DNA from: Escherichia phage A73
Length of the DNA: 64,000 nt
Sequence record: OP778609
Strand: one strand, 5' to 3'
A model generated the notes under the pieces. That model was not told the origin of the DNA. It did no database searches and saw only the letters and a list, made by a program, of their open reading frames with translations. Shown here one piece after another: positions 39,887-62,014 of this stretch. A program made the translations under genes and the position numbers. The stretch's first letter is position 1. The number at the start of each line of letters is the position of its first letter.

Positions 39887-40153
39887 TTAGATATAGTCTA
39901 CACCAGCTTGTTCCAACAAGTCAAGCCTTAATTTAAGTTCTTTTTCACGATAGTCGGAAACAAGTTTATCCTTTTTCTTTTCTTCTTCGTCGAACTGTTC
40001 GAGTGGAAGAATACGAATAATGTGCTCTGCCTTCATGTAGGACGTTGATCCGATAAGCTGAACATTACCATTTGGTAACAATCGACCCTTGATCACCCGA
40101 TAACGAGGGAACAAGTCATATTTAACAATCGCGGTAACTGCTAGATTACTCAT
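39887..40153 (-). CDS. Hypothetical small protein
   Basis: 88-aa ORF. Confidence 0.35.
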   Translation of the reverse strand: MSNLAVTAIVKYDLFPRYRVIKGRLLPNGNVQLIGSTSYMKAEHIIRILPLEQFDEEEKKKDKLVSDYREKELKLRLDLLEQAGVDYI

Positions 40154-40472
40154 GTGTATTCTCCATATCGCGAATTCGATCTTCTACCCAACCACGACGA
40201 TAAATGTTGAGGTAAGATTTACCTTTTGAACCATGATGGGCATATTCGTCAAAATCAAAATCAAAAGGCGTCTCGGTGTTAAGACCCGCATCAAAGAATT
40301 GATTCTTCATTTCGAATTGCACTTTCATGTCTGGATCATTTTTACCTAAAAATGAAGACAAATTAAAACAAAGGCCAGCACCTCGGTAAAAAGCCCCATC
40401 TTTTGGTGCACCGATATCTAACCATTTTTTATATTCTCGGTAGAAATTCAGAAGTTGCGGACTGCTTTTCAT
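40146..40472 (-). CDS. Hypothetical protein, paralog family B (copy 1)
   Basis: Start set at MKSSPQLL behind GAGGAG RBS (ORF track 40523 extends through an inverted repeat); shares FY..Y..WLD.GAP...GLC..L...DAGL...PFD with ORF 49858-50154. Confidence 0.45.
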   Translation of the reverse strand: MKSSPQLLNFYREYKKWLDIGAPKDGAFYRGAGLCFNLSSFLGKNDPDMKVQFEMKNQFFDAGLNTETPFDFDFDEYAHHGSKGKSYLNIYRRGWVEDRIRDMENTHE

Positions 40473-40491
40473 TTTGTTCTCCTCATTTGTT

Positions 40492-40523
40492 TTGATAGGA
40501 CTACTATAACATAGTCCTATCAA
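40492..40523 (-). promoter_or_regulatory. Perfect 11-bp inverted repeat upstream of family-B gene
   Basis: TTGATAGGACT-N10-AGTCCTATCAA, 20-51 nt upstream of the start codon; candidate operator or 5'-UTR hairpin. Confidence 0.4.
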
Positions 40524-40605
40524 CTTGTATACTATTTAATTAAAGATTTTATGAATGCTTGGTAGGACCCTTCTTTAAATACTCATCTGGATAATAAAAA
40601 TCATC

Positions 40606-40983
40606 CTATACTCCAAATGTGGATTTGATTTCAGCAATAACCTCATGCACATTGTTTTCGTTTACTTCAAATGTGTAGGACGTTGGTTTAAGGAACGTCT
40701 GAGGTGAAACATTAACAAAGAATTCAAATTCATCATTAAAAATTTCAAAGTATTTTCCAGGTGTTGATTCTTGGCTTTTGAAAACAGTACCATCTTCCAT
40801 AGTAACAGAAGAAACAGATTTTTCACCAAGGGTGTATGTTTTTAGCTCGTCAACAACGAAACTGGGGCCGTGGCGACGGAGTATTTCAACCATAGTTCGG
40901 TTAGCTCCACAAATACCAGTACGATTAATAAATAACTCTTCACACCGAGGATTGAGAATATAAGTTTTTCCTACTTGCATCAT
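40606..40983 (-). CDS. Acidic small protein, paralog family A (copy 3 in transcript order)
   Basis: 125 aa; shares M.[VI]GKTY.LN...HGP.F[IV]V...YFE...EF.FF...SNA.E[VT][IL].[LE]IK[SA]TF with the two adjacent ORFs. Confidence 0.5.
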   Translation of the reverse strand: MMQVGKTYILNPRCEELFINRTGICGANRTMVEILRRHGPSFVVDELKTYTLGEKSVSSVTMEDGTVFKSQESTPGKYFEIFNDEFEFFVNVSPQTFLKPTSYTFEVNENNVHEVIAEIKSTFGV

Positions 40984-40993
40984 TACAATCTCC

Positions 40994-41353
40994 TTATGCT
41001 AAGTTAAATGTGGATTTGATCAGGTCAATAACCTCTTGTGCGTTGCTCTCCGACACAGATACCTGAATAATTTTAAGGTCGCTGACCTCTTCAAAGTATT
41101 CGAACTCAGATTCACGAAGTTCAAAGTACATTGCCCCACAGCCCACACTGAATGAATCACACCCTACAGCACCATCTTCTGTTGTGATGTTATTAACATA
41201 CTCATCACCTTCGATCATGCTCATGTTGTTAACAATAAATCGTGGCCCGTGCTCATCCAGAAAAGAAACAATCTCGTGATTGTAACTTGGGTCAGCCTGA
41301 ATAAATTCTTCTACGAGTTTTGGATTAAGTTTATAAGTTTTTCCGACTTCCAT
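40994..41353 (-). CDS. Acidic small protein, paralog family A (copy 2)
   Basis: 119 aa; same motif set; own RBS. Confidence 0.5.
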   Translation of the reverse strand: MEVGKTYKLNPKLVEEFIQADPSYNHEIVSFLDEHGPRFIVNNMSMIEGDEYVNNITTEDGAVGCDSFSVGCGAMYFELRESEFEYFEEVSDLKIIQVSVSESNAQEVIDLIKSTFNLA

Positions 41354-41364
41354 CTTTGTTCTCC

Positions 41365-41739
41365 TTACGCCAGGTTAAAGGTAGCTTTAATCAAATCTAA
41401 AGTTTCTTGTGCATTACTACGAGAGACGGCAACCTGAATAATAACAGGGTCTTCATCTTCCCCGACTTCTTTGAAGAAGGGAAATTCACTCTCTGCAAGT
41501 TCAAAGTATACACACTTGTTACCTTCGCAGTCGTGAAAAACGTCACTACCTAAAGTACCATCTTCAAATATGACATTGTTAACATATGCAACATTATCAT
41601 AGAAGTGGGTGGTGTTGACAACAAATTTAGGACCGTGCTTATAAATAAGGTCAACCAATTCTTGATTGTAGCTAGGGTCCATATTGATAAAAGCTTTTTC
41701 TAAGTCTTTATTAAGAATGTAAGTTTTTCCGATTTCCAT
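41365..41739 (-). CDS. Acidic small protein, paralog family A (copy 1)
   Basis: Start at MEIGKTY behind GAGGAGAG RBS (ORF track 41826 runs through promoter and terminator). Confidence 0.5.
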   Translation of the reverse strand: MEIGKTYILNKDLEKAFINMDPSYNQELVDLIYKHGPKFVVNTTHFYDNVAYVNNVIFEDGTLGSDVFHDCEGNKCVYFELAESEFPFFKEVGEDEDPVIIQVAVSRSNAQETLDLIKATFNLA

Positions 41740-41768
41740 CTTTGCTCTCCTCTTCAGTTGATGGATAC

Positions 41769-41798
41769 ATCTTAGTTGATATAGACATGTCTTGTCAA
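41769..41798 (-). promoter_or_regulatory. Sigma70-like promoter with palindromic spacer element
   Basis: On - strand TTGACA-N18-TAAGAT; spacer contains perfect 10-bp palindrome AGACATGTCT (41783-41792); ~30 nt upstream of the copy-1 start. Confidence 0.5.
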
Positions 41799-41819
41799 TA
41801 ACTTTTTGCACATAAAAGA

Positions 41820-41842
41820 AAACCACCCTTCGGGGTGGTTTA
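41820..41842 (-). terminator. Rho-independent terminator after DNA polymerase exon 2
   Basis: On - strand AAACCACCCcgaaGGGTGGTTTtcttttatg: 9-bp stem plus T-run. Confidence 0.7.
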
Positions 41843-41847
41843 AATTA

Positions 41848-42198
41848 CTAGTGGCACGCCCCCCAGTTCATCCCTGTGAGGTATTCACCTGTTATGTGGA
41901 CAGGAGATTTCATCATTCGTGCTGCTTGCTCTACACAACGAACAACCATCTCTCCAACTGGACAATACATGATCGTGTAGATTCCATTCTCATCAGGATC
42001 ACACTTAAACTTCCCTTCTTTCACACAATGACCATCCAAGATCATTTTCTTAGCCAAGCAAGCTTCTACAAATTTCTTCGCGTCAGCTTCGTTGTCAAAG
42101 GTCCAGGTCTTCTTGAACTTGTGCGGTACTTCAAGCTGGTATTCATCCAAAAGTTTAACGAGGTCGTTACTCTCGCCCACATCATTACATGTTGCCAT
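41848..42198 (-). CDS. DNA polymerase (family A, T7-type), 3' exon
   Basis: 116-aa ORF ending ...GMNWGACH, like the family-A C-terminus; contains LLDEYQLEV, a candidate motif C. Frame is closed 2 codons upstream of the ATG; true exon start is probably near 42180. Confidence 0.65.
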   Translation of the reverse strand: MATCNDVGESNDLVKLLDEYQLEVPHKFKKTWTFDNEADAKKFVEACLAKKMILDGHCVKEGKFKCDPDENGIYTIMYCPVGEMVVRCVEQAARMMKSPVHITGEYLTGMNWGACH

Positions 42199-42954
42199 AC
42201 GTTTTCACATATGGATCGGACTATATCACCATCCTTTTCAGGATGCTCCCCATTTCGACGGCACTTGCTCGCCTACGCCTCTCGGCTAGTCTCTGAACGT
42301 TAGGACCATGTGTAGTCACAAGAGATGTGTGTCCAGTTTTTACGGATTTTTATGGACCTTACCACGTTGTAAGGATAACCCATATCCCGAATCTGTGCAC
42401 TTCCATAACCTTGCCCCAGGAAGTTGCAAATCTCTCTAACCTCTTCTTCGGTAACTATACTTCTGGCGTTATCAACCCCTGTTGCTGAACGACATTTATC
42501 AGCAAAGGTTTTCTTGATATTTCCACCACGAGTTGTCCATTGGAGGTTTGAATAGTGGTTATTCCTTTTGTCAGGCCACTTATGATCAACCTCCGGCAAA
42601 CCTTCAGGGTTTGGTACAAAACACTCTGCCACCAAAACGTGAACAGCCTTTGTAGTCGTCCTTTTGTTGAGATACAGACTTACAATAAGATACCCACGTC
42701 CATTATCAACTGCCGCCATTGGTTTCCCTCGACGACCTATAATGGTCCCGTCTTCATAAACCTTGTAACCGAAATAATCTTTATATTCCACATGATCCTC
42801 TTCGCTGCTGATTAACATAGTCTCATACTAACTCACACTTGAATTAATATCAACCTTAGTCTTCCAGCAATTAAAGGAGTTTTCGATGTGAGTTACCTCA
42901 CAAAGCCACAATGTTACTTATGGTAATAGATAATACGTCTAACGCCTTCATCAT
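42180..42954 (-). mobile_element. Group I intron with HNH homing endonuclease ORF (boundaries approximate)
   Basis: On the - strand RNA, in order: P-like AAUUGCUGGAAG (42861-42872), Q-like AAUCAGCAGC (42804-42813), HNH ORF, R-like GUUCAGAGACUAG (42286-42298), S-like GAUAUAGUCC (42218-42227). P/Q and R/S cores are complementary. Confidence 0.7.
42300..42818 (-). CDS. HNH homing endonuclease (intron-encoded)
   Basis: 172 aa; NUMOD4-like N-terminus (YFGYKVYEDGTIIGRRGK...GYLIVSL) and HNH_3-like core (KAVHVLVAECF...VDHKWPDKRNNHYSNLQWTTRGGN). Confidence 0.8.
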   Translation of the reverse strand: MLISSEEDHVEYKDYFGYKVYEDGTIIGRRGKPMAAVDNGRGYLIVSLYLNKRTTTKAVHVLVAECFVPNPEGLPEVDHKWPDKRNNHYSNLQWTTRGGNIKKTFADKCRSATGVDNARSIVTEEEVREICNFLGQGYGSAQIRDMGYPYNVVRSIKIRKNWTHISCDYTWS

Positions 42955-45250
42955 ACCAACCTTTCTTGACCAACTGCCAGTGCAGGAGGATACCCACCAA
43001 GTCAAACAGTGCAGCACCACCATTCTGCTGATAAGCATTAAGCAATGAGTGTTTGGAACGAGTGTAGATCTTACGTCCATCAAGACCGTAGATGAATCGC
43101 TTACCGTTAGCTTCCCAAAACTTCTCTAATGCTTCTTTACGACCTTTCAAGCCGATGTTGCTATCCCAGAATGCGTCGATTACTGCCTGGGCCTTCTCAA
43201 GAGTGATCCCCAGCATTGATGCAATCTTCGCTGCCTGTGCCCCGTACATAATTCCGTATGTCACACCTTTACCTTCACCACGAGAAACCTTCTTCCCTGC
43301 CGCTTTGGTATACGCTTCTGCGTTTCGGGAGTGAGCATCTCCAGATTCCATGATACGAAGATAAGCACCGCCATCGAAATCATAAGCGCCCCATGCTGCG
43401 ATCATACCTTCTAGGTTTGAACCGTCGATACCTACCTGATATTTACCCTCAGAGGCTCTGAATAGTTCACGCATCTCTTTACCGAGAAGAACTTTCTCAT
43501 CCGGCTTAGGTACGTTTGCTACGATCGTATGCTTACGACGACCTGTGTTAGTTATTCCACTATAACGGGCCGGAAGTTTACCGTCAACTCGTAGACGTGG
43601 ATGGTTAAGCCATCCGGTATCAACCTTCTCTTCTTTCAGCGGGTCAAGAACAGATCGTCGGTTACGTAAAGACAGCCATTTAACAATCTGTTTAGCCATT
43701 TCACCATCTACTCGCTCAAGGTTAGGGCAAAGACCCTGTTGATCCTTAAGTTGTGGAGATGTAGGTAATGCACGAGCTTTCTTACGGAAAAACTTGAACA
43801 TCTTTTCTTTATCTGACCACTGCTTAGGTGTGATCGCCAAGCTTTTCAGAATCAGATCACGATACTCCGTCTGATCCAAATCTTCAATGTATTGACGAAC
43901 AATCAGATCAACTTCACTATCGGGACGTTGTTTCTTGAACTGATCTTTAGTTGCATCCTTTGTACGCCAAATTGTTGGGACCCATCCTGCATCACGGATC
44001 AGGAACTTCTTAACGTCGTCCTGGTTACCAATACGCATCGGAATCATAATGTCCGGCATCTTTTGTTCTTTGATATCCATCAAAGCACGAGCCATATCTT
44101 CCGGCGGCAAAGGAACAAGCCCTTGCTGCTTAACGTTTTGTGCACGGATAAAATCACCCATTTTGGATTCGTCCTCTACACCGTGTTCAACACAATACTT
44201 GATCGCGGCAGCAGTAAGAGATCCGTCAGCCTTAAACGGCTTACTTGGTGCACCTTTAAATTCCAAGGCTTCCCAATTGATATTATAACCTAACTTCTCT
44301 AACCATTTCCAACCTGTACCGGAAAGAGATCCATCACCCTTGAAAGGTTTGGATGGGAATGTCGGTTGTGCTGATTTCGACATCTCTTTCTTCGGCAACT
44401 TAGGTTCAACCTCTAACTCAATGTCAGTCATCATCTTATCGATACGATCACGAAGCTTGAGTGCTTTTTCTTCATCAAATGAAACACCCTGAATTTCTTG
44501 CTCAATCATCAGGTAGTCAGTCAACATACCTCGACGCAGGGCATTCTTCCAGTTGATCATTTTATACTTCTTCTGATCTTTGTCTGTTTCATCCTTAAAC
44601 ATGAAGCGTTTATCATCCGGCATGGATTCACAGGAGATCTCTTTCATCAGAGCATCCCACACCATTTCGTTGATAATTACGTCTTCAATAATACGATCGC
44701 AATACTTCCAAAGTGGAAGGCCACGCCAATCTTCAATCGCCACTTTCTGGTTAGCTACTCGCATACCCCAAGCTTCAAGCCCGTGTGGCCCTACAGGCTT
44801 CATTTTACCTGTGACGGGGTTCTTTACCATCTCAGGACAACCGCGAGGCAGAGGGCGATCTGGATACAATGTACGGGACATTGAAAGTGTATCGAAGATG
44901 GTTACTTGTTTACCATTGATCGTCCCCATGCAACCAGGGTCTGCAAACATATCGTAAGTTGTTCCTAGCATCTTCTTAAACAACTGGAGGTCATAGCCGA
45001 AGATGTTGTGGATAGCAACTGCTTTAGGCTCGGTAACGAACCATTCGTTTAATTCTTCAAGGGTGCGGATCTTGAAGTTTTTACCTTTAGATTGGATAAA
45101 TTTAACAGCTTGATCGTAACCTTCTCGCTGTGGATCAAGAAAGATGTTCCAGTTATCTTTTTTGTACTCTTTAAACAAGATGCAGTGGATTAGATCAACT
45201 TCTGTCAACAGACCATTAGCTTCCGCATCTCCAATAAATAAGCCTTTCAT
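42914..45250 (-). CDS. DNA polymerase (family A, T7-type), 5' exon with 3'-5' exonuclease domain
   Basis: 778 aa; Exo I-like FIGDAEANGL, HGLEAWG segment, motif A-like QVGIDGSNLEGMIAAW, motif B-like RGEGKGVTYGIMYGAQAAK, GRKIY...NGGAALFDL; stops just before the expected motif C. Confidence 0.85.
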   Translation of the reverse strand: MKGLFIGDAEANGLLTEVDLIHCILFKEYKKDNWNIFLDPQREGYDQAVKFIQSKGKNFKIRTLEELNEWFVTEPKAVAIHNIFGYDLQLFKKMLGTTYDMFADPGCMGTINGKQVTIFDTLSMSRTLYPDRPLPRGCPEMVKNPVTGKMKPVGPHGLEAWGMRVANQKVAIEDWRGLPLWKYCDRIIEDVIINEMVWDALMKEISCESMPDDKRFMFKDETDKDQKKYKMINWKNALRRGMLTDYLMIEQEIQGVSFDEEKALKLRDRIDKMMTDIELEVEPKLPKKEMSKSAQPTFPSKPFKGDGSLSGTGWKWLEKLGYNINWEALEFKGAPSKPFKADGSLTAAAIKYCVEHGVEDESKMGDFIRAQNVKQQGLVPLPPEDMARALMDIKEQKMPDIMIPMRIGNQDDVKKFLIRDAGWVPTIWRTKDATKDQFKKQRPDSEVDLIVRQYIEDLDQTEYRDLILKSLAITPKQWSDKEKMFKFFRKKARALPTSPQLKDQQGLCPNLERVDGEMAKQIVKWLSLRNRRSVLDPLKEEKVDTGWLNHPRLRVDGKLPARYSGITNTGRRKHTIVANVPKPDEKVLLGKEMRELFRASEGKYQVGIDGSNLEGMIAAWGAYDFDGGAYLRIMESGDAHSRNAEAYTKAAGKKVSRGEGKGVTYGIMYGAQAAKIASMLGITLEKAQAVIDAFWDSNIGLKGRKEALEKFWEANGKRFIYGLDGRKIYTRSKHSLLNAYQQNGGAALFDLVGILLHWQLVKKGWYDEGVRRIIYYHK

Positions 45251-49610: not shown

Positions 49611-49861
49611 AAACCATACCTCGCTTCATATAAGAATTCATCAAGATCTTTACTGTCGTCTGAACCTTCTACTGTCAGTGGCATTAGATGTTCTTTAAAA
49701 TAATAGCAAAGATTGCCGGAACTTGTTTCTACTAAACATGTTGTTTTGCAAACCATTTTAACCCTTACCGATAGTCCGGCATCTTCATGGCTGTGGACCA
49801 TTGCAAGGCAACCATCGTAAAGCTTATCCTCATAAGGTAAGCAAGGATCTGGATTTTTCAT
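49607..49861 (-). CDS. Hypothetical Cys-rich small protein
   Basis: 84-aa ORF. Confidence 0.35.
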   Translation of the reverse strand: MKNPDPCLPYEDKLYDGCLAMVHSHEDAGLSVRVKMVCKTTCLVETSSGNLCYYFKEHLMPLTVEGSDDSKDLDEFLYEARYGL

Positions 49862-50154
49862 TGGGAACTTTCCTCCTCTGCATGTTTACGTACCCAAGCT
49901 ACACGGGCCGGATTGAGGTGTTTCTTAGTGTCTTTATGATATGTATACCGGCCTTTATCAAAAGGGAACTCACAGCACAGTCCAGCGTCGGTAAACTGTT
50001 GTTGCATCTCTTCAGACAAATCAAAATTATAGTCCGGCCAATGGTCCAGTGAGTAACATAACCCCTTACGACGATTAAACGGATCGCGGTCAGGTGCGCC
50101 ATCGTCAAGCCACGCGGCATAGGCTTTATAGAATGCTTTAAGTTGCTCGCTCAT
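49858..50154 (-). CDS. Hypothetical protein, paralog family B (copy 2)
   Basis: 98 aa; MSEQLKAFYKAYAAWLDDGAP...GLCYSL...FTDAGL..EFPFD aligns with ORF 40146-40472. Confidence 0.45.
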   Translation of the reverse strand: MSEQLKAFYKAYAAWLDDGAPDRDPFNRRKGLCYSLDHWPDYNFDLSEEMQQQFTDAGLCCEFPFDKGRYTYHKDTKKHLNPARVAWVRKHAEEESSQ

Positions 50155-51380: not shown

Positions 51381-51409
51381 AGTATAGGGGAGTTTGATGA
51401 GGGTGTCAA
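51381..51409 (-). promoter_or_regulatory. Sigma70-like promoter
   Basis: On - strand TTGACA-N17-TATACT, ~32 nt upstream of the start at 51349 and just downstream of the helicase terminator. Confidence 0.55.
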
Positions 51410-51411
51410 TA

Positions 51412-51440
51412 GAAAAAACCGCCCGAAGGCGGTTTATTTT
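51412..51440 (-). terminator. Rho-independent terminator after primase-helicase
   Basis: AACCGCCcgaaGGCGGTT hairpin with A-run and T-run flanks (bidirectional in form). Confidence 0.7.
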
Positions 51441-51445
51441 TAGGA

Positions 51446-53491
51446 TCAGAAAGGTGCGTCGTCGTCCCAATCATCCGGCTCTGTGTCCGGCACATCAGGA
51501 ATATCACCTGTGGATTCAACGATACTTTGTTGTTCCCACGTAGGTTCTTCTGAAGGTTGTTCCATTTCTTCCATAACCTTCTTGATCTCTTCCTCTTGCT
51601 CACGCAGGAAGTTATCATCCGGCTCAGGAATATCTTCCTCTTTAATATCTGAACGAGTGAGATCACTGTTTTGTTCAGACAGAGGTTGAATCTCTGCTGC
51701 TTTAGGCTTAAAGTCTGGAGAACGATGATCATCTTCTGGATGAGCGGCATACCACTCACGAAGAGTTTCATAAGGACTCTCTAAGAAGCCCTCTGGCGGT
51801 TCCAGATAATCACCCGTGTCAATGTCATAGAACACAGGGAATTTACCAGCACGACCGTGTTTACGGTCATCCAGAATAACAAAGTAAGAAGTGTTACGTT
51901 GTTTCATCGGGAGTTCTGGATCTTTGTTACGTTCAATACCCCACATGTAATAAGTGTTACGCATCATTGCACGGCTACCAGCAAACTGCGCTGACTGGAC
52001 TTGACCACCAAATTCATGAGGCTTACCAGATTCAGGCTTGTTAAGGTGACAGAAGCAATAATAGGTAAAGCCAAGCTCTTTTGCCAGTTTGGAGATCTCA
52101 TCAGAGAATCGTTCCAGTTCCTGGTTAGCTTCGGAAGCACTCATACCTTGCACAAGACGAGTGATTGGGTCAATAAAGATATCTTCACAACCTTCTACGA
52201 TCACTGCGTGACGGATAGCACCTTTCAGTTCATCCCATACTGCACGACCATAGTTGTTATAATAGATAACACTATCACCAACTTCATCAGTAGCCTTGAT
52301 CAGTTCTTCTTGCTTAAAGTAGCCACGTTGACCTTCAAATACTTCATTACCCCAAATGTCACGGAAAGTTCCATCTTCTTGAGGAATCATTACCTTTTCT
52401 GCGTTAACAAAGTCTTTATGATAACGCTTACCTGCGATCTTTTTACAGGTAATTTCGTTCTCTTCTTCAAACTTAAACACCGCAGCCTTTGACTTCTCAA
52501 TGCCTGTAATGTGTTCTACCATCTGGTTAAGAAGTTCACTCTTACCCATCTTGACCCCAGCCCCGATAAAGTAACCTTCACCTGGGCGACGGCCTAAAGT
52601 AAGCTTGGTCATGGTAGGCCAAGGGAATTTCTTACCAAGTTTAGGGATCTCATGGGCTTTTTCACGGAACTGTGAATAAGTCGAGAAACCATCCGGCACA
52701 TATTCCTTTGGCTTCATTGCAGCCCAAAACAACTGATCAGAAAGTCCTTTGTTATACATGTCGCAAGGGTCCATATCTTCTGGAATGTCCACGACTTTCA
52801 TTTGTGGAATTACAGAGTATACCGCTGCAACTGCATCTTTACCTTTCATGATCCCTTTGGCCTTCTCTGCCTCTGTTGCACGGTCAGCGTCGAAAGCTAC
52901 GATAATCTCTTCAAACTTACTCAGAAGCTTATAGTTATTCTTCTGTGATAAGTTTTGCACGGCATTGGATGTACCGTTAGAGATTGATACTACGGTGAAG
53001 TTAGGTTTACGGGTGGAACCATCCTTCGGTTTGTACTTCTCTGTCAATACCTGCCACAAGATTGCAGCATCATATTCACCTTCAGTGATAAAGATCATAC
53101 GTTTGGAAGACTTATTTGCACCTTCCAGCCCAAACATATCACAAGCCACAGATTGGAAACCAATAGTTGTAAAGTGACCTTTCTGTTGCTTAGGGATCGT
53201 AAGATCACGCTTCTTAAAACCTACAACCTTACCTTCCAATGTGTACGGAAAATAATGTGCTTCTGGAGTCATACCGTCTTTAGCTGACAACTTGGTACGA
53301 ATACCAAATCGTTTAGCTGTCTTTTCGTCGATACCACGCTCAGGGATACTTTTACACGGATAAGTCAATACGTCTTCAACTGTTTCTTCCACACGAGACA
53401 CACCACCACCATAATTACGTGCTACTGAAGCTTTAGGATTTTTATGTCCAAACTTATAACCGCCAAACAGACTTTCGCCAATAGTGCTCAT
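51446..53491 (-). CDS. Primase-helicase (T7 gp4-like)
   Basis: 681 aa; TOPRIM-like FITEGEYDAAIL and AFDADRA, DnaB-type Walker A GAGVKMGKSELLNQM; acidic C-terminus ending DDWDDDAPF. Confidence 0.8.
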   Translation of the reverse strand: MSTIGESLFGGYKFGHKNPKASVARNYGGGVSRVEETVEDVLTYPCKSIPERGIDEKTAKRFGIRTKLSAKDGMTPEAHYFPYTLEGKVVGFKKRDLTIPKQQKGHFTTIGFQSVACDMFGLEGANKSSKRMIFITEGEYDAAILWQVLTEKYKPKDGSTRKPNFTVVSISNGTSNAVQNLSQKNNYKLLSKFEEIIVAFDADRATEAEKAKGIMKGKDAVAAVYSVIPQMKVVDIPEDMDPCDMYNKGLSDQLFWAAMKPKEYVPDGFSTYSQFREKAHEIPKLGKKFPWPTMTKLTLGRRPGEGYFIGAGVKMGKSELLNQMVEHITGIEKSKAAVFKFEEENEITCKKIAGKRYHKDFVNAEKVMIPQEDGTFRDIWGNEVFEGQRGYFKQEELIKATDEVGDSVIYYNNYGRAVWDELKGAIRHAVIVEGCEDIFIDPITRLVQGMSASEANQELERFSDEISKLAKELGFTYYCFCHLNKPESGKPHEFGGQVQSAQFAGSRAMMRNTYYMWGIERNKDPELPMKQRNTSYFVILDDRKHGRAGKFPVFYDIDTGDYLEPPEGFLESPYETLREWYAAHPEDDHRSPDFKPKAAEIQPLSEQNSDLTRSDIKEEDIPEPDDNFLREQEEEIKKVMEEMEQPSEEPTWEQQSIVESTGDIPDVPDTEPDDWDDDAPF

Positions 53492-61700: not shown

Positions 61701-61756
61701 TTATTCTCTCCTCGTTTGTTTTGATAGGGTCATATTACACAACCCTTGATATGGTG

Positions 61757-62014
61757 TCAACTAAAAATTAAAGAAACAACGTGGTAAATTACTTGGGGAA
61801 AGATAACTACGAAGTACAGATCAACAAATCCAGAGATAAAGTGATAAGCCTTCAGTTTTGTACGTTTACCTTTGTAAAAATCAGAGATGATTTTGAAATA
61901 TTTATAAAGATTCCTTAAAAGTGCAAAACCGATCAACCCCAACCCACTAAGAACCACAACAAAAAGTGAAAACTGGACGTCCGCACTAAAAACACCAATA
62001 ATAAGATCTAACAT
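61757..62014 (-). CDS. Small membrane protein
   Basis: 85 aa with two hydrophobic helices. Confidence 0.4.
   Translation of the reverse strand: MLDLIIGVFSADVQFSLFVVVLSGLGLIGFALLRNLYKYFKIISDFYKGKRTKLKAYHFISGFVDLYFVVIFPQVIYHVVSLIFS

Follow-up and report, generated by a model that had tools for sequence, protein, structure and literature searches.

PeSLs are described as elements in which an AT-rich region is followed by a sigma-70 promoter, a stem-loop that often overlaps the -10 and in which G-T pairs are allowed, a Shine-Dalgarno (SD) sequence and an ATG (PMC2839356). They are multi-copy elements that cluster in hyperplastic regions (PMC2839356; PMC4122927) and are enriched at sites where closely related phages have gained, lost or replaced genes (PMC2839356). 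Promoter and attenuator activity and the formation of mini-circles are among their features (PMC2839356; PMC4122927); terminator activity was measured only on a GC-rich stem from RB49 (Arbiol et al. 2010, PMC2839356). The T4/PST subtype has the promoter TTTACW-N17-TAYWAT and an AGNA-loop-TCNT stem (Comeau et al. 2014, PMC4122927). T4 has a protein, Alt, that stimulates some of its early promoters. The early promoters of T4 have also been described, as a combination of UP, -35, TGn and -10 elements with additional conserved positions (Hinton 2010, PMC2988021). In the papers listed by a full-text search of the literature, PeSLs are described in T4-type phages only, and none of the papers listed deals with both PeSLs and Vequintavirinae. 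Septuagintavirus is a genus of E. coli myoviruses within the Vequintavirinae, and the paper on it makes no mention of promoters or terminators (PMC11370258).

The locus presented here is found in a 64,000-nt stretch of the genome of Escherichia phage A73 (OP778609), termed the window, and all genes of the region are on the minus strand. An inverted repeat situated between the last of three FRD2 genes and the first of two homologous small genes (family B) is most probably, judging from its sequence, the stem-loop of a T-even-type PeSL cassette.

Phage A73 is reported to be 96% identical to phage W70 (PMC11370258). The window and W70 (OP778610) are 100% identical at 39-42 kb, where window coordinates are one lower than those of the record, but identity is only ~95% at 45-64 kb, where phage A5-4 is closer (96.7%). 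Thus the relationship has a mosaic pattern, and the ~95% identity at 45-64 kb rules out that the window is W70 itself, of which it is a close relative.

Structure of the cassette

Coordinates of the cassette and of related features are in Table 1.

Table 1. Positions of the predicted elements and genes in the window.
Feature	Position	Strand	Remarks
Probable T-even-type PeSL cassette	40466..40554	-	AT-rich region, promoter, stem-loop, conserved 5' leader, SD
-35, TATACA	40526..40531	-	T-even early type gTTTACA/gTATACA; consensus TTTACW (PMC4122927)
Stem 5' arm, TTGATAGGACTA	40512..40523	-	Fills promoter spacer
Extended -10, TGtTATAGT	40503..40511	-	TG 40511-40510, hexamer 40508-40503
Stem 3' arm, TAGTCCTATCAA	40492..40503	-	Last -10 base, predicted transcription start, first leader bases
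SD, GAGGAG	40479..40484	-	6 nt before ATG
Family-B copy 1	40146..40472	-	108 aa, phrog_2510; ATG start at 40472
Three tandem FRD2-family genes (PF03197, T4 frd.2)	40606-40983, 40994-41353, 41365-41826	-	Directly upstream
Family-B copy 2	49858..50154	-	98 aa, phrog_2510
Terminator-like GC hairpin, then directly TTGACA-N17-TATACT	51381..51435	-	Native element
Second, weak T-even-like promoter	61716..61762	-	TTGACA-N17-TAATAT; 5-bp AGGGT/ACCCT stem around -10

The cassette lies between the stop of the last FRD2 gene, FRD2c (40606), and the ATG of family-B copy 1. An AT-rich, UP-like stretch (ATAAAATCTTTAATTAAATA) precedes the -35, and the -35 and -10 are separated by 17 nt. The initial transcribed region, CCTATCAAAACAA, which is conserved, is found between the -10 and the SD. 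With respect to the limits of a PeSL, the upstream stop and the downstream ATG enclose the cassette, and the SD is at its 3' end. The promoter reads TATACA-N17-TATAGT with a TG, with one mismatch per hexamer.

An earlier note on this DNA had described the inverted repeat as TTGATAGGACT-N10-AGTCCTATCAA, with 11-bp arms, at 40492-40523. The position is correct, but the arms are longer than given and form 12+12 bp of perfect complementarity around an 8-nt loop. The -10 occupies this loop plus the first base of the 3' arm. The 12-bp stem, ..AGGActa / tagTCCT.., has the -10 in its loop as in PeSLs, and 4/12 pairs are G-C. The free energy of the repeat as folded DNA is -9.8 kcal/mol (z -6.1), and an RNA fold of the 91 nt around it has a value of -19 kcal/mol (z -3.8). 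The repeat occurs nowhere else in the window when up to 3 mismatches are allowed, with 0 occurrences expected (100 shuffles). Thus a second copy upstream of 50154, in front of the other family-B gene, which the earlier note had proposed to look for, is not present at this threshold. A search of Rfam for known RNA families gave only a sub-threshold match to RybB (E 0.69).

The cassette thus shares with the T4/PST PeSL the AT-rich region, the promoter, the N17 spacer, an AGNA...TCNT-type stem that overlaps the -10, and the SD. With the T4 'uber' early promoters (PMC2988021) it shares the UP-like AT-rich region, a -35, TGn and -10 at canonical spacing, and extra conserved positions beyond the elements that RNA polymerase contacts, but complementarity between the spacer and the start site is not treated as a promoter element in that review.

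It had been noted previously that a predicted open reading frame folds the repeat wrongly into a coding region, and evidence on the start site bears this out. The ORF concerned starts with TTG, has 125 aa, and is considered an artefact; the ATG at 40472, with GAGGAG 6 nt upstream, is preferred. Across four relatives, consisting of W70_90 (GenBank) and orthologues, the annotated start is the equivalent of this ATG. In phages A5-4 and LTH01 the TTG is changed to GCG, and alignments of the protein family begin at the Met encoded by the ATG at 40472. In addition, the DNA counterpart of the repeat in T-even phages is intergenic promoter sequence. On account of these several observations, i.e., the ATG with its SD, the annotated starts, the change of TTG to GCG, the alignments that begin at Met and the intergenic counterpart, the repeat is regarded as non-coding.

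Homologous cassettes in T-even phages

About 85-95 nt around the repeat match sequences of T-even phages (Mosigvirus, RB69, phiD1 and others) with 78-86% identity, in 5-9 places per genome, while the rest of the neighbourhood is without such a match. An 87-nt core is 86% identical to positions 111258-111344 of Mosigvirus FP43. A search of the whole FP43 genome with nhmmer gave ~30 candidate copies, all on the early-gene strand, and 28 of these were kept for analysis. Every one of the 28 is situated just upstream of an ATG. The features common to them are gTTTACA, a 17-nt spacer, TGtTATAGT or GATACTAT, CCTATCAAAACAA, an SD and the ATG, and both hexamer variants of the window also occur among these copies. 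The FP43 copy that precedes its frd.2-like gene has a core, GATAGGACTATGTTATAGTAGTCCTATCAAAACAAATGAG, that is identical to that of the window. Related cassettes are also found in RB69 and T4, so that homologs of the element are present in FP43, RB69 and T4.

These matches to T-even early-promoter cassettes uphold the view that the repeat is upstream regulatory DNA. They do not uphold the gene-specific protein-binding site that had been implied, since the cassette, ~90 nt in length, is common to T-even phages and precedes many unrelated genes.

The cassette might also be read from the side of the FRD2 genes: the hairpin would then be mainly a terminator or a 3'-end stabiliser for these genes, and the promoter-like hexamers would be incidental. 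The repeat is 83 nt past the FRD2c stop, its RNA hairpin is stable, and the PeSL literature does give the stem-loop a terminator or attenuator role. However, the stem is followed by AAAACAAA, which is without a U-run, and a canonical intrinsic terminator is discounted because of this lack of a U-tract; when examined as an intrinsic (Rho-independent) terminator the stem did not qualify, and a terminator scan made no call. Moreover, the -35, TGn, -10, leader and SD are found at fixed spacing in ~30 T-even copies, an arrangement that only a promoter explains. A role mainly in termination is thus improbable, and a promoter cassette that includes a stem-loop is the preferred reading.

Covariation in the stem

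The arms of the FP43 copies vary in sequence yet remain complementary to one another. Examples are AGGAGCA/TGCTCCT, CAGAGTAAT/ATTACTCTG and GGTACAGGT/ACCTGTACC, and further complementary pairs are AGGATGAT/ATCATCCT and CCAGTAGTTG/CAACTACTGG. Complementarity between cognate arms averages 6.86 bp, as opposed to 5.10 bp between non-cognate arms, and 0/2000 permutations reach the observed value. The T4 cassette upstream of mobD.2, TTGACAAGATTA-TGGTATAG-TAATCTTGTCAA, displays the same geometry with a 13-bp stem and has three compensatory changes relative to the stem of the window.

An alignment of 33 cassettes was anchored on the promoter hexamers and not on the stem, and is essentially ungapped. 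In this alignment 65.6% of cells pair when the register is that of W70 and the window, compared with 30-44% in slid registers, and double changes are found in 11/12 stem pairs. The covariation score is 0.262, vs 0.177 +/- 0.015 in shuffled alignments, with 0/500 shuffles reaching it. It should be noted that the covariation statistics are partly inflated, since the structure under test was taken from a sequence that is itself in the alignment, and many of the FP43 copies are closely related. Where mismatches occur, a comparison of G:T with A:C gives 26 vs 36 observed and 32 vs 47 expected, and this does not favour a structure maintained at the RNA level.

The aligned sequences argue that the stem is selected and not accidental. 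This bears on another possible explanation of the palindrome, in which it is an operator: a dimeric regulator of phage or host origin would bind there, occlude the -10, and switch the operon of the first paralog on and off. A selected stem-loop of the PeSL type is preferred over a fixed operator because the arms change while staying complementary, and do so before many unrelated genes. The operator explanation is thus rather improbable.

Copy number and native promoters

A profile made from the FP43 promoters was searched against an assembly of ~137 kb, made up of the window and the remainder of the W70 record, in which ~1 kb is duplicated at the join and no sequence is missing. Only two matches were obtained, at 40487-40536 (E 5e-9) and at 61716-61762 (E 0.009). 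The leader of the second, weak match carries the same CCTATCAAAACAAAcGAGGAGA as the cassette at 40.5 kb. Its T-even-like leader, CCCTATCAAAACAAACGAGGAGA, has an 86% match to the sequence upstream of cef in the Salmonella T4-like phage S16.

The high copy number of PeSLs, which is seen in T-even genomes, is thus not found in this ~137-kb assembly, where there is one strong and one weak match. The locus also differs from the PeSLs of T4-like phages in its setting, a Septuagintavirus (Vequintavirinae) genome with one strong copy instead of dozens.

The native early promoters of this phage group are of a different kind and consist of TTGACA-N17-TAAATT, behind which the leader contains a GC-rich stem. 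In the W70 record, at ~74-81 kb, units of aaaaagtagTTGACA-N17-TAAATT/TAAACT/TATAAT are repeated before small ORFs; each has a GC-rich leader stem-loop, e.g., GGCGGGGaatggaCCCGC or GGGGAGAatagtTCTCCCC, and then an SD. The native cassettes of W70 (64.5-82 kb of the record) resemble the RB49/phi1-type PeSL, with its GN-loop-CN stem. As in the cassette at 40.5 kb, a promoter and a stem-loop precede small early ORFs, although the native unit is a repeated one. In the native cassettes, however, the stem is downstream of the start site, and their sequences are not similar to that of the 40.5-kb cassette.

FRD2 genes and the left-hand junction

The three FRD2 genes that precede the cassette score 73.1, 73.0 and 67.9 bits against the Pfam family, for which the gathering threshold is 29 bits. 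In a phage collection 318 FRD2 matches were found; the records listed are of T4-like phage size, ~160-190 kb, with the exception of the closest relatives of the window (4 records at >=95% aa identity).

Among close relatives the sequence to the left of the cassette differs. W70 and UPEC06 have a 133-nt spacer at this point, A5-4 has an extra gene of 243 nt, and LTH01 has the end of a different FRD2-like gene. Thus three left contexts converge at the cassette and are the same from there rightwards, and in this the locus shows the association with insertion, deletion or replacement that is described for PeSLs. In LTH01 the gene and cassette together are 76% identical over 464 nt to FP43 110889-111344. 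The FRD2c-cassette spacer at 40524-40605 is unusually long and is in part similar to the 3'-terminal portion of the additional gene in A5-4; this similarity suggests a deletion remnant.

In the simplest reading of the locus, co-infecting coliphages exchanged a T-even-type module made up of the FRD2 array with the cassette at its end, and the family-B gene merely came to lie behind this cassette.

That the resemblance to T-even phages reflects convergence on a strong sigma-70 promoter, with a repeat that is a chance or neutral palindrome, is very improbable. The 87 nt with 86% identity take in parts of the spacer and leader that are not read by RNA polymerase, and in LTH01 the similarity extends over 464 nt and reaches into the upstream gene. 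A repeat of this kind did not arise in any of 100 shuffles, and the native promoters of the group, TTGACA-N17-TAAATT with a GC-rich leader stem, are different. A T-even-type cassette thus accounts better for the sequence.

Several other features of the surrounding region may be mentioned. The DNA polymerase is in two pieces, of 778 aa (42914-45250) and 116 aa (41848-42198). Between them is a 172-aa ORF (42300-42818) with a sub-threshold match to HNH_3 (23.9 vs 24.8 bits), probably a free-standing homing endonuclease that splits the DNA polymerase gene. At 51446-53491 the window has one uninterrupted ORF of 681 aa for a primase/helicase, the W70 counterpart of which is annotated as three CDS, including an HNH homing endonuclease. 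W70 is ~1.06 kb longer than the window between this ORF and 61.7 kb. The difference at 51446-53491 has the appearance of a polymorphism in which a homing endonuclease is either present or absent. An ORF of 238 aa at 48281-48997 matches C-5 cytosine DNA methylase weakly, with a score below the threshold (20.8 vs 22 bits).

The two family-B genes

The gene that is first behind the cassette has a homolog elsewhere in the window, as had been noted from the motif FY..Y..WLD.GAP...GLC...DAGL...PFD, which both ORFs indeed carry. A BLASTP alignment of copy 1 with copy 2 shows 39/93 identities (42%; E 2e-18), and each protein matches phrog_2510 along its entire length (E 1.8e-22 for copy 1 and 2.2e-26 for copy 2). 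Their homology is thus confirmed. The description of the two as a paralog pair is acceptable as regards homology, but not if it is taken to mean local duplication. Copy 2 is 65% identical to gp19 of Shigella phage Sf12, to which copy 1 is 41% identical, and a recent or local duplication is discounted because copy 2 is closer to Sf12 gp19 than to copy 1. From these comparisons the two genes are taken to be divergent members, inherited separately, of a phage-specific family of very large size.

The two genes had also been assigned to different operons, and this agrees with the positions of the promoters. Copy 1 is behind the cassette, and copy 2 is ~1.2 kb downstream of the native hairpin and TTGACA promoter at 51381-51435, where its operon probably begins. 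No promoter of its own is present for copy 2. Its ATG abuts the stop of the preceding gene (TAAATG), and its SD, GAGGAGG, is inside that gene.

A profile of the pair and their homologues collected 1741 representatives at 50% clustering. Family members are found in phAPEC8-like, phi92-like, N4-like, Rhizobium and jumbo phages, with up to six per genome. As in the window, members of phrog_2510 are single-domain proteins of ~100 aa, and several copies are present in some phages; some relatives, unlike the single-domain pair of the window, are fused tandem proteins with two to three domains. Searches with the family-B protein against Pfam, NCBIfam and PDB sequences gave no significant match, and in the sources searched there was no name or Pfam domain for any member of the family. 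An AlphaFold model displays five helices in an all-alpha bundle (pLDDT 80), for which no convincing structural relative was found. The usual position of the family among early or accessory genes prompts a guess, and a weak one, that the protein might be an early accessory or host-interaction protein. Phrog_2510 is flagged here as a very large phage protein family that is without annotation.

Possible roles of the cassette

Host sigma-70 RNA polymerase would be expected to start at ~40497, early in infection, and the transcript would cover family-B copy 1 and roughly ten small genes after it. Since the 5' arm precedes the start site, this transcript would be unable to form the hairpin. The hairpin would be confined to unwound DNA and to RNA that reads through from the FRD2 genes, and may there insulate the operon from upstream transcription or attenuate that transcription. 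The conserved patch of ~90 bp could in addition serve as a recombination site for the exchange of modules, a role that has been put forward for PeSLs. T-even phages of the same host may have been the source of the cassette and the FRD2 array, or the partners in their exchange.

A further proposal is that the T-even PeSL is a self-contained mobile regulatory cassette that crosses phage families, with a hairpin that acts at the DNA level. This is considered unlikely. If true, the hairpin with the -10 in its loop, kept at a fixed geometry by covariation, could be a cruciform or a hot spot of recombination, or could present the -10 strand to RNA polymerase, and would not be merely an RNA attenuator.

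The stem around the -10 covaries at fixed geometry in T-even phages. This AU-rich stem is without a U-tract, and the published terminator explanation is not obviously sufficient for it.

What appeared to be a gene-specific operator is thus read instead as a phage regulatory cassette of a known type. The type of element is already known, and its location in an unexpected phage subfamily is the only new part. The locus is a clear example of a promoter cassette of the T4 family, with T4-type genes beside it, in another subfamily, and this speaks for the proposed transfer of genes between genomes by PeSLs.
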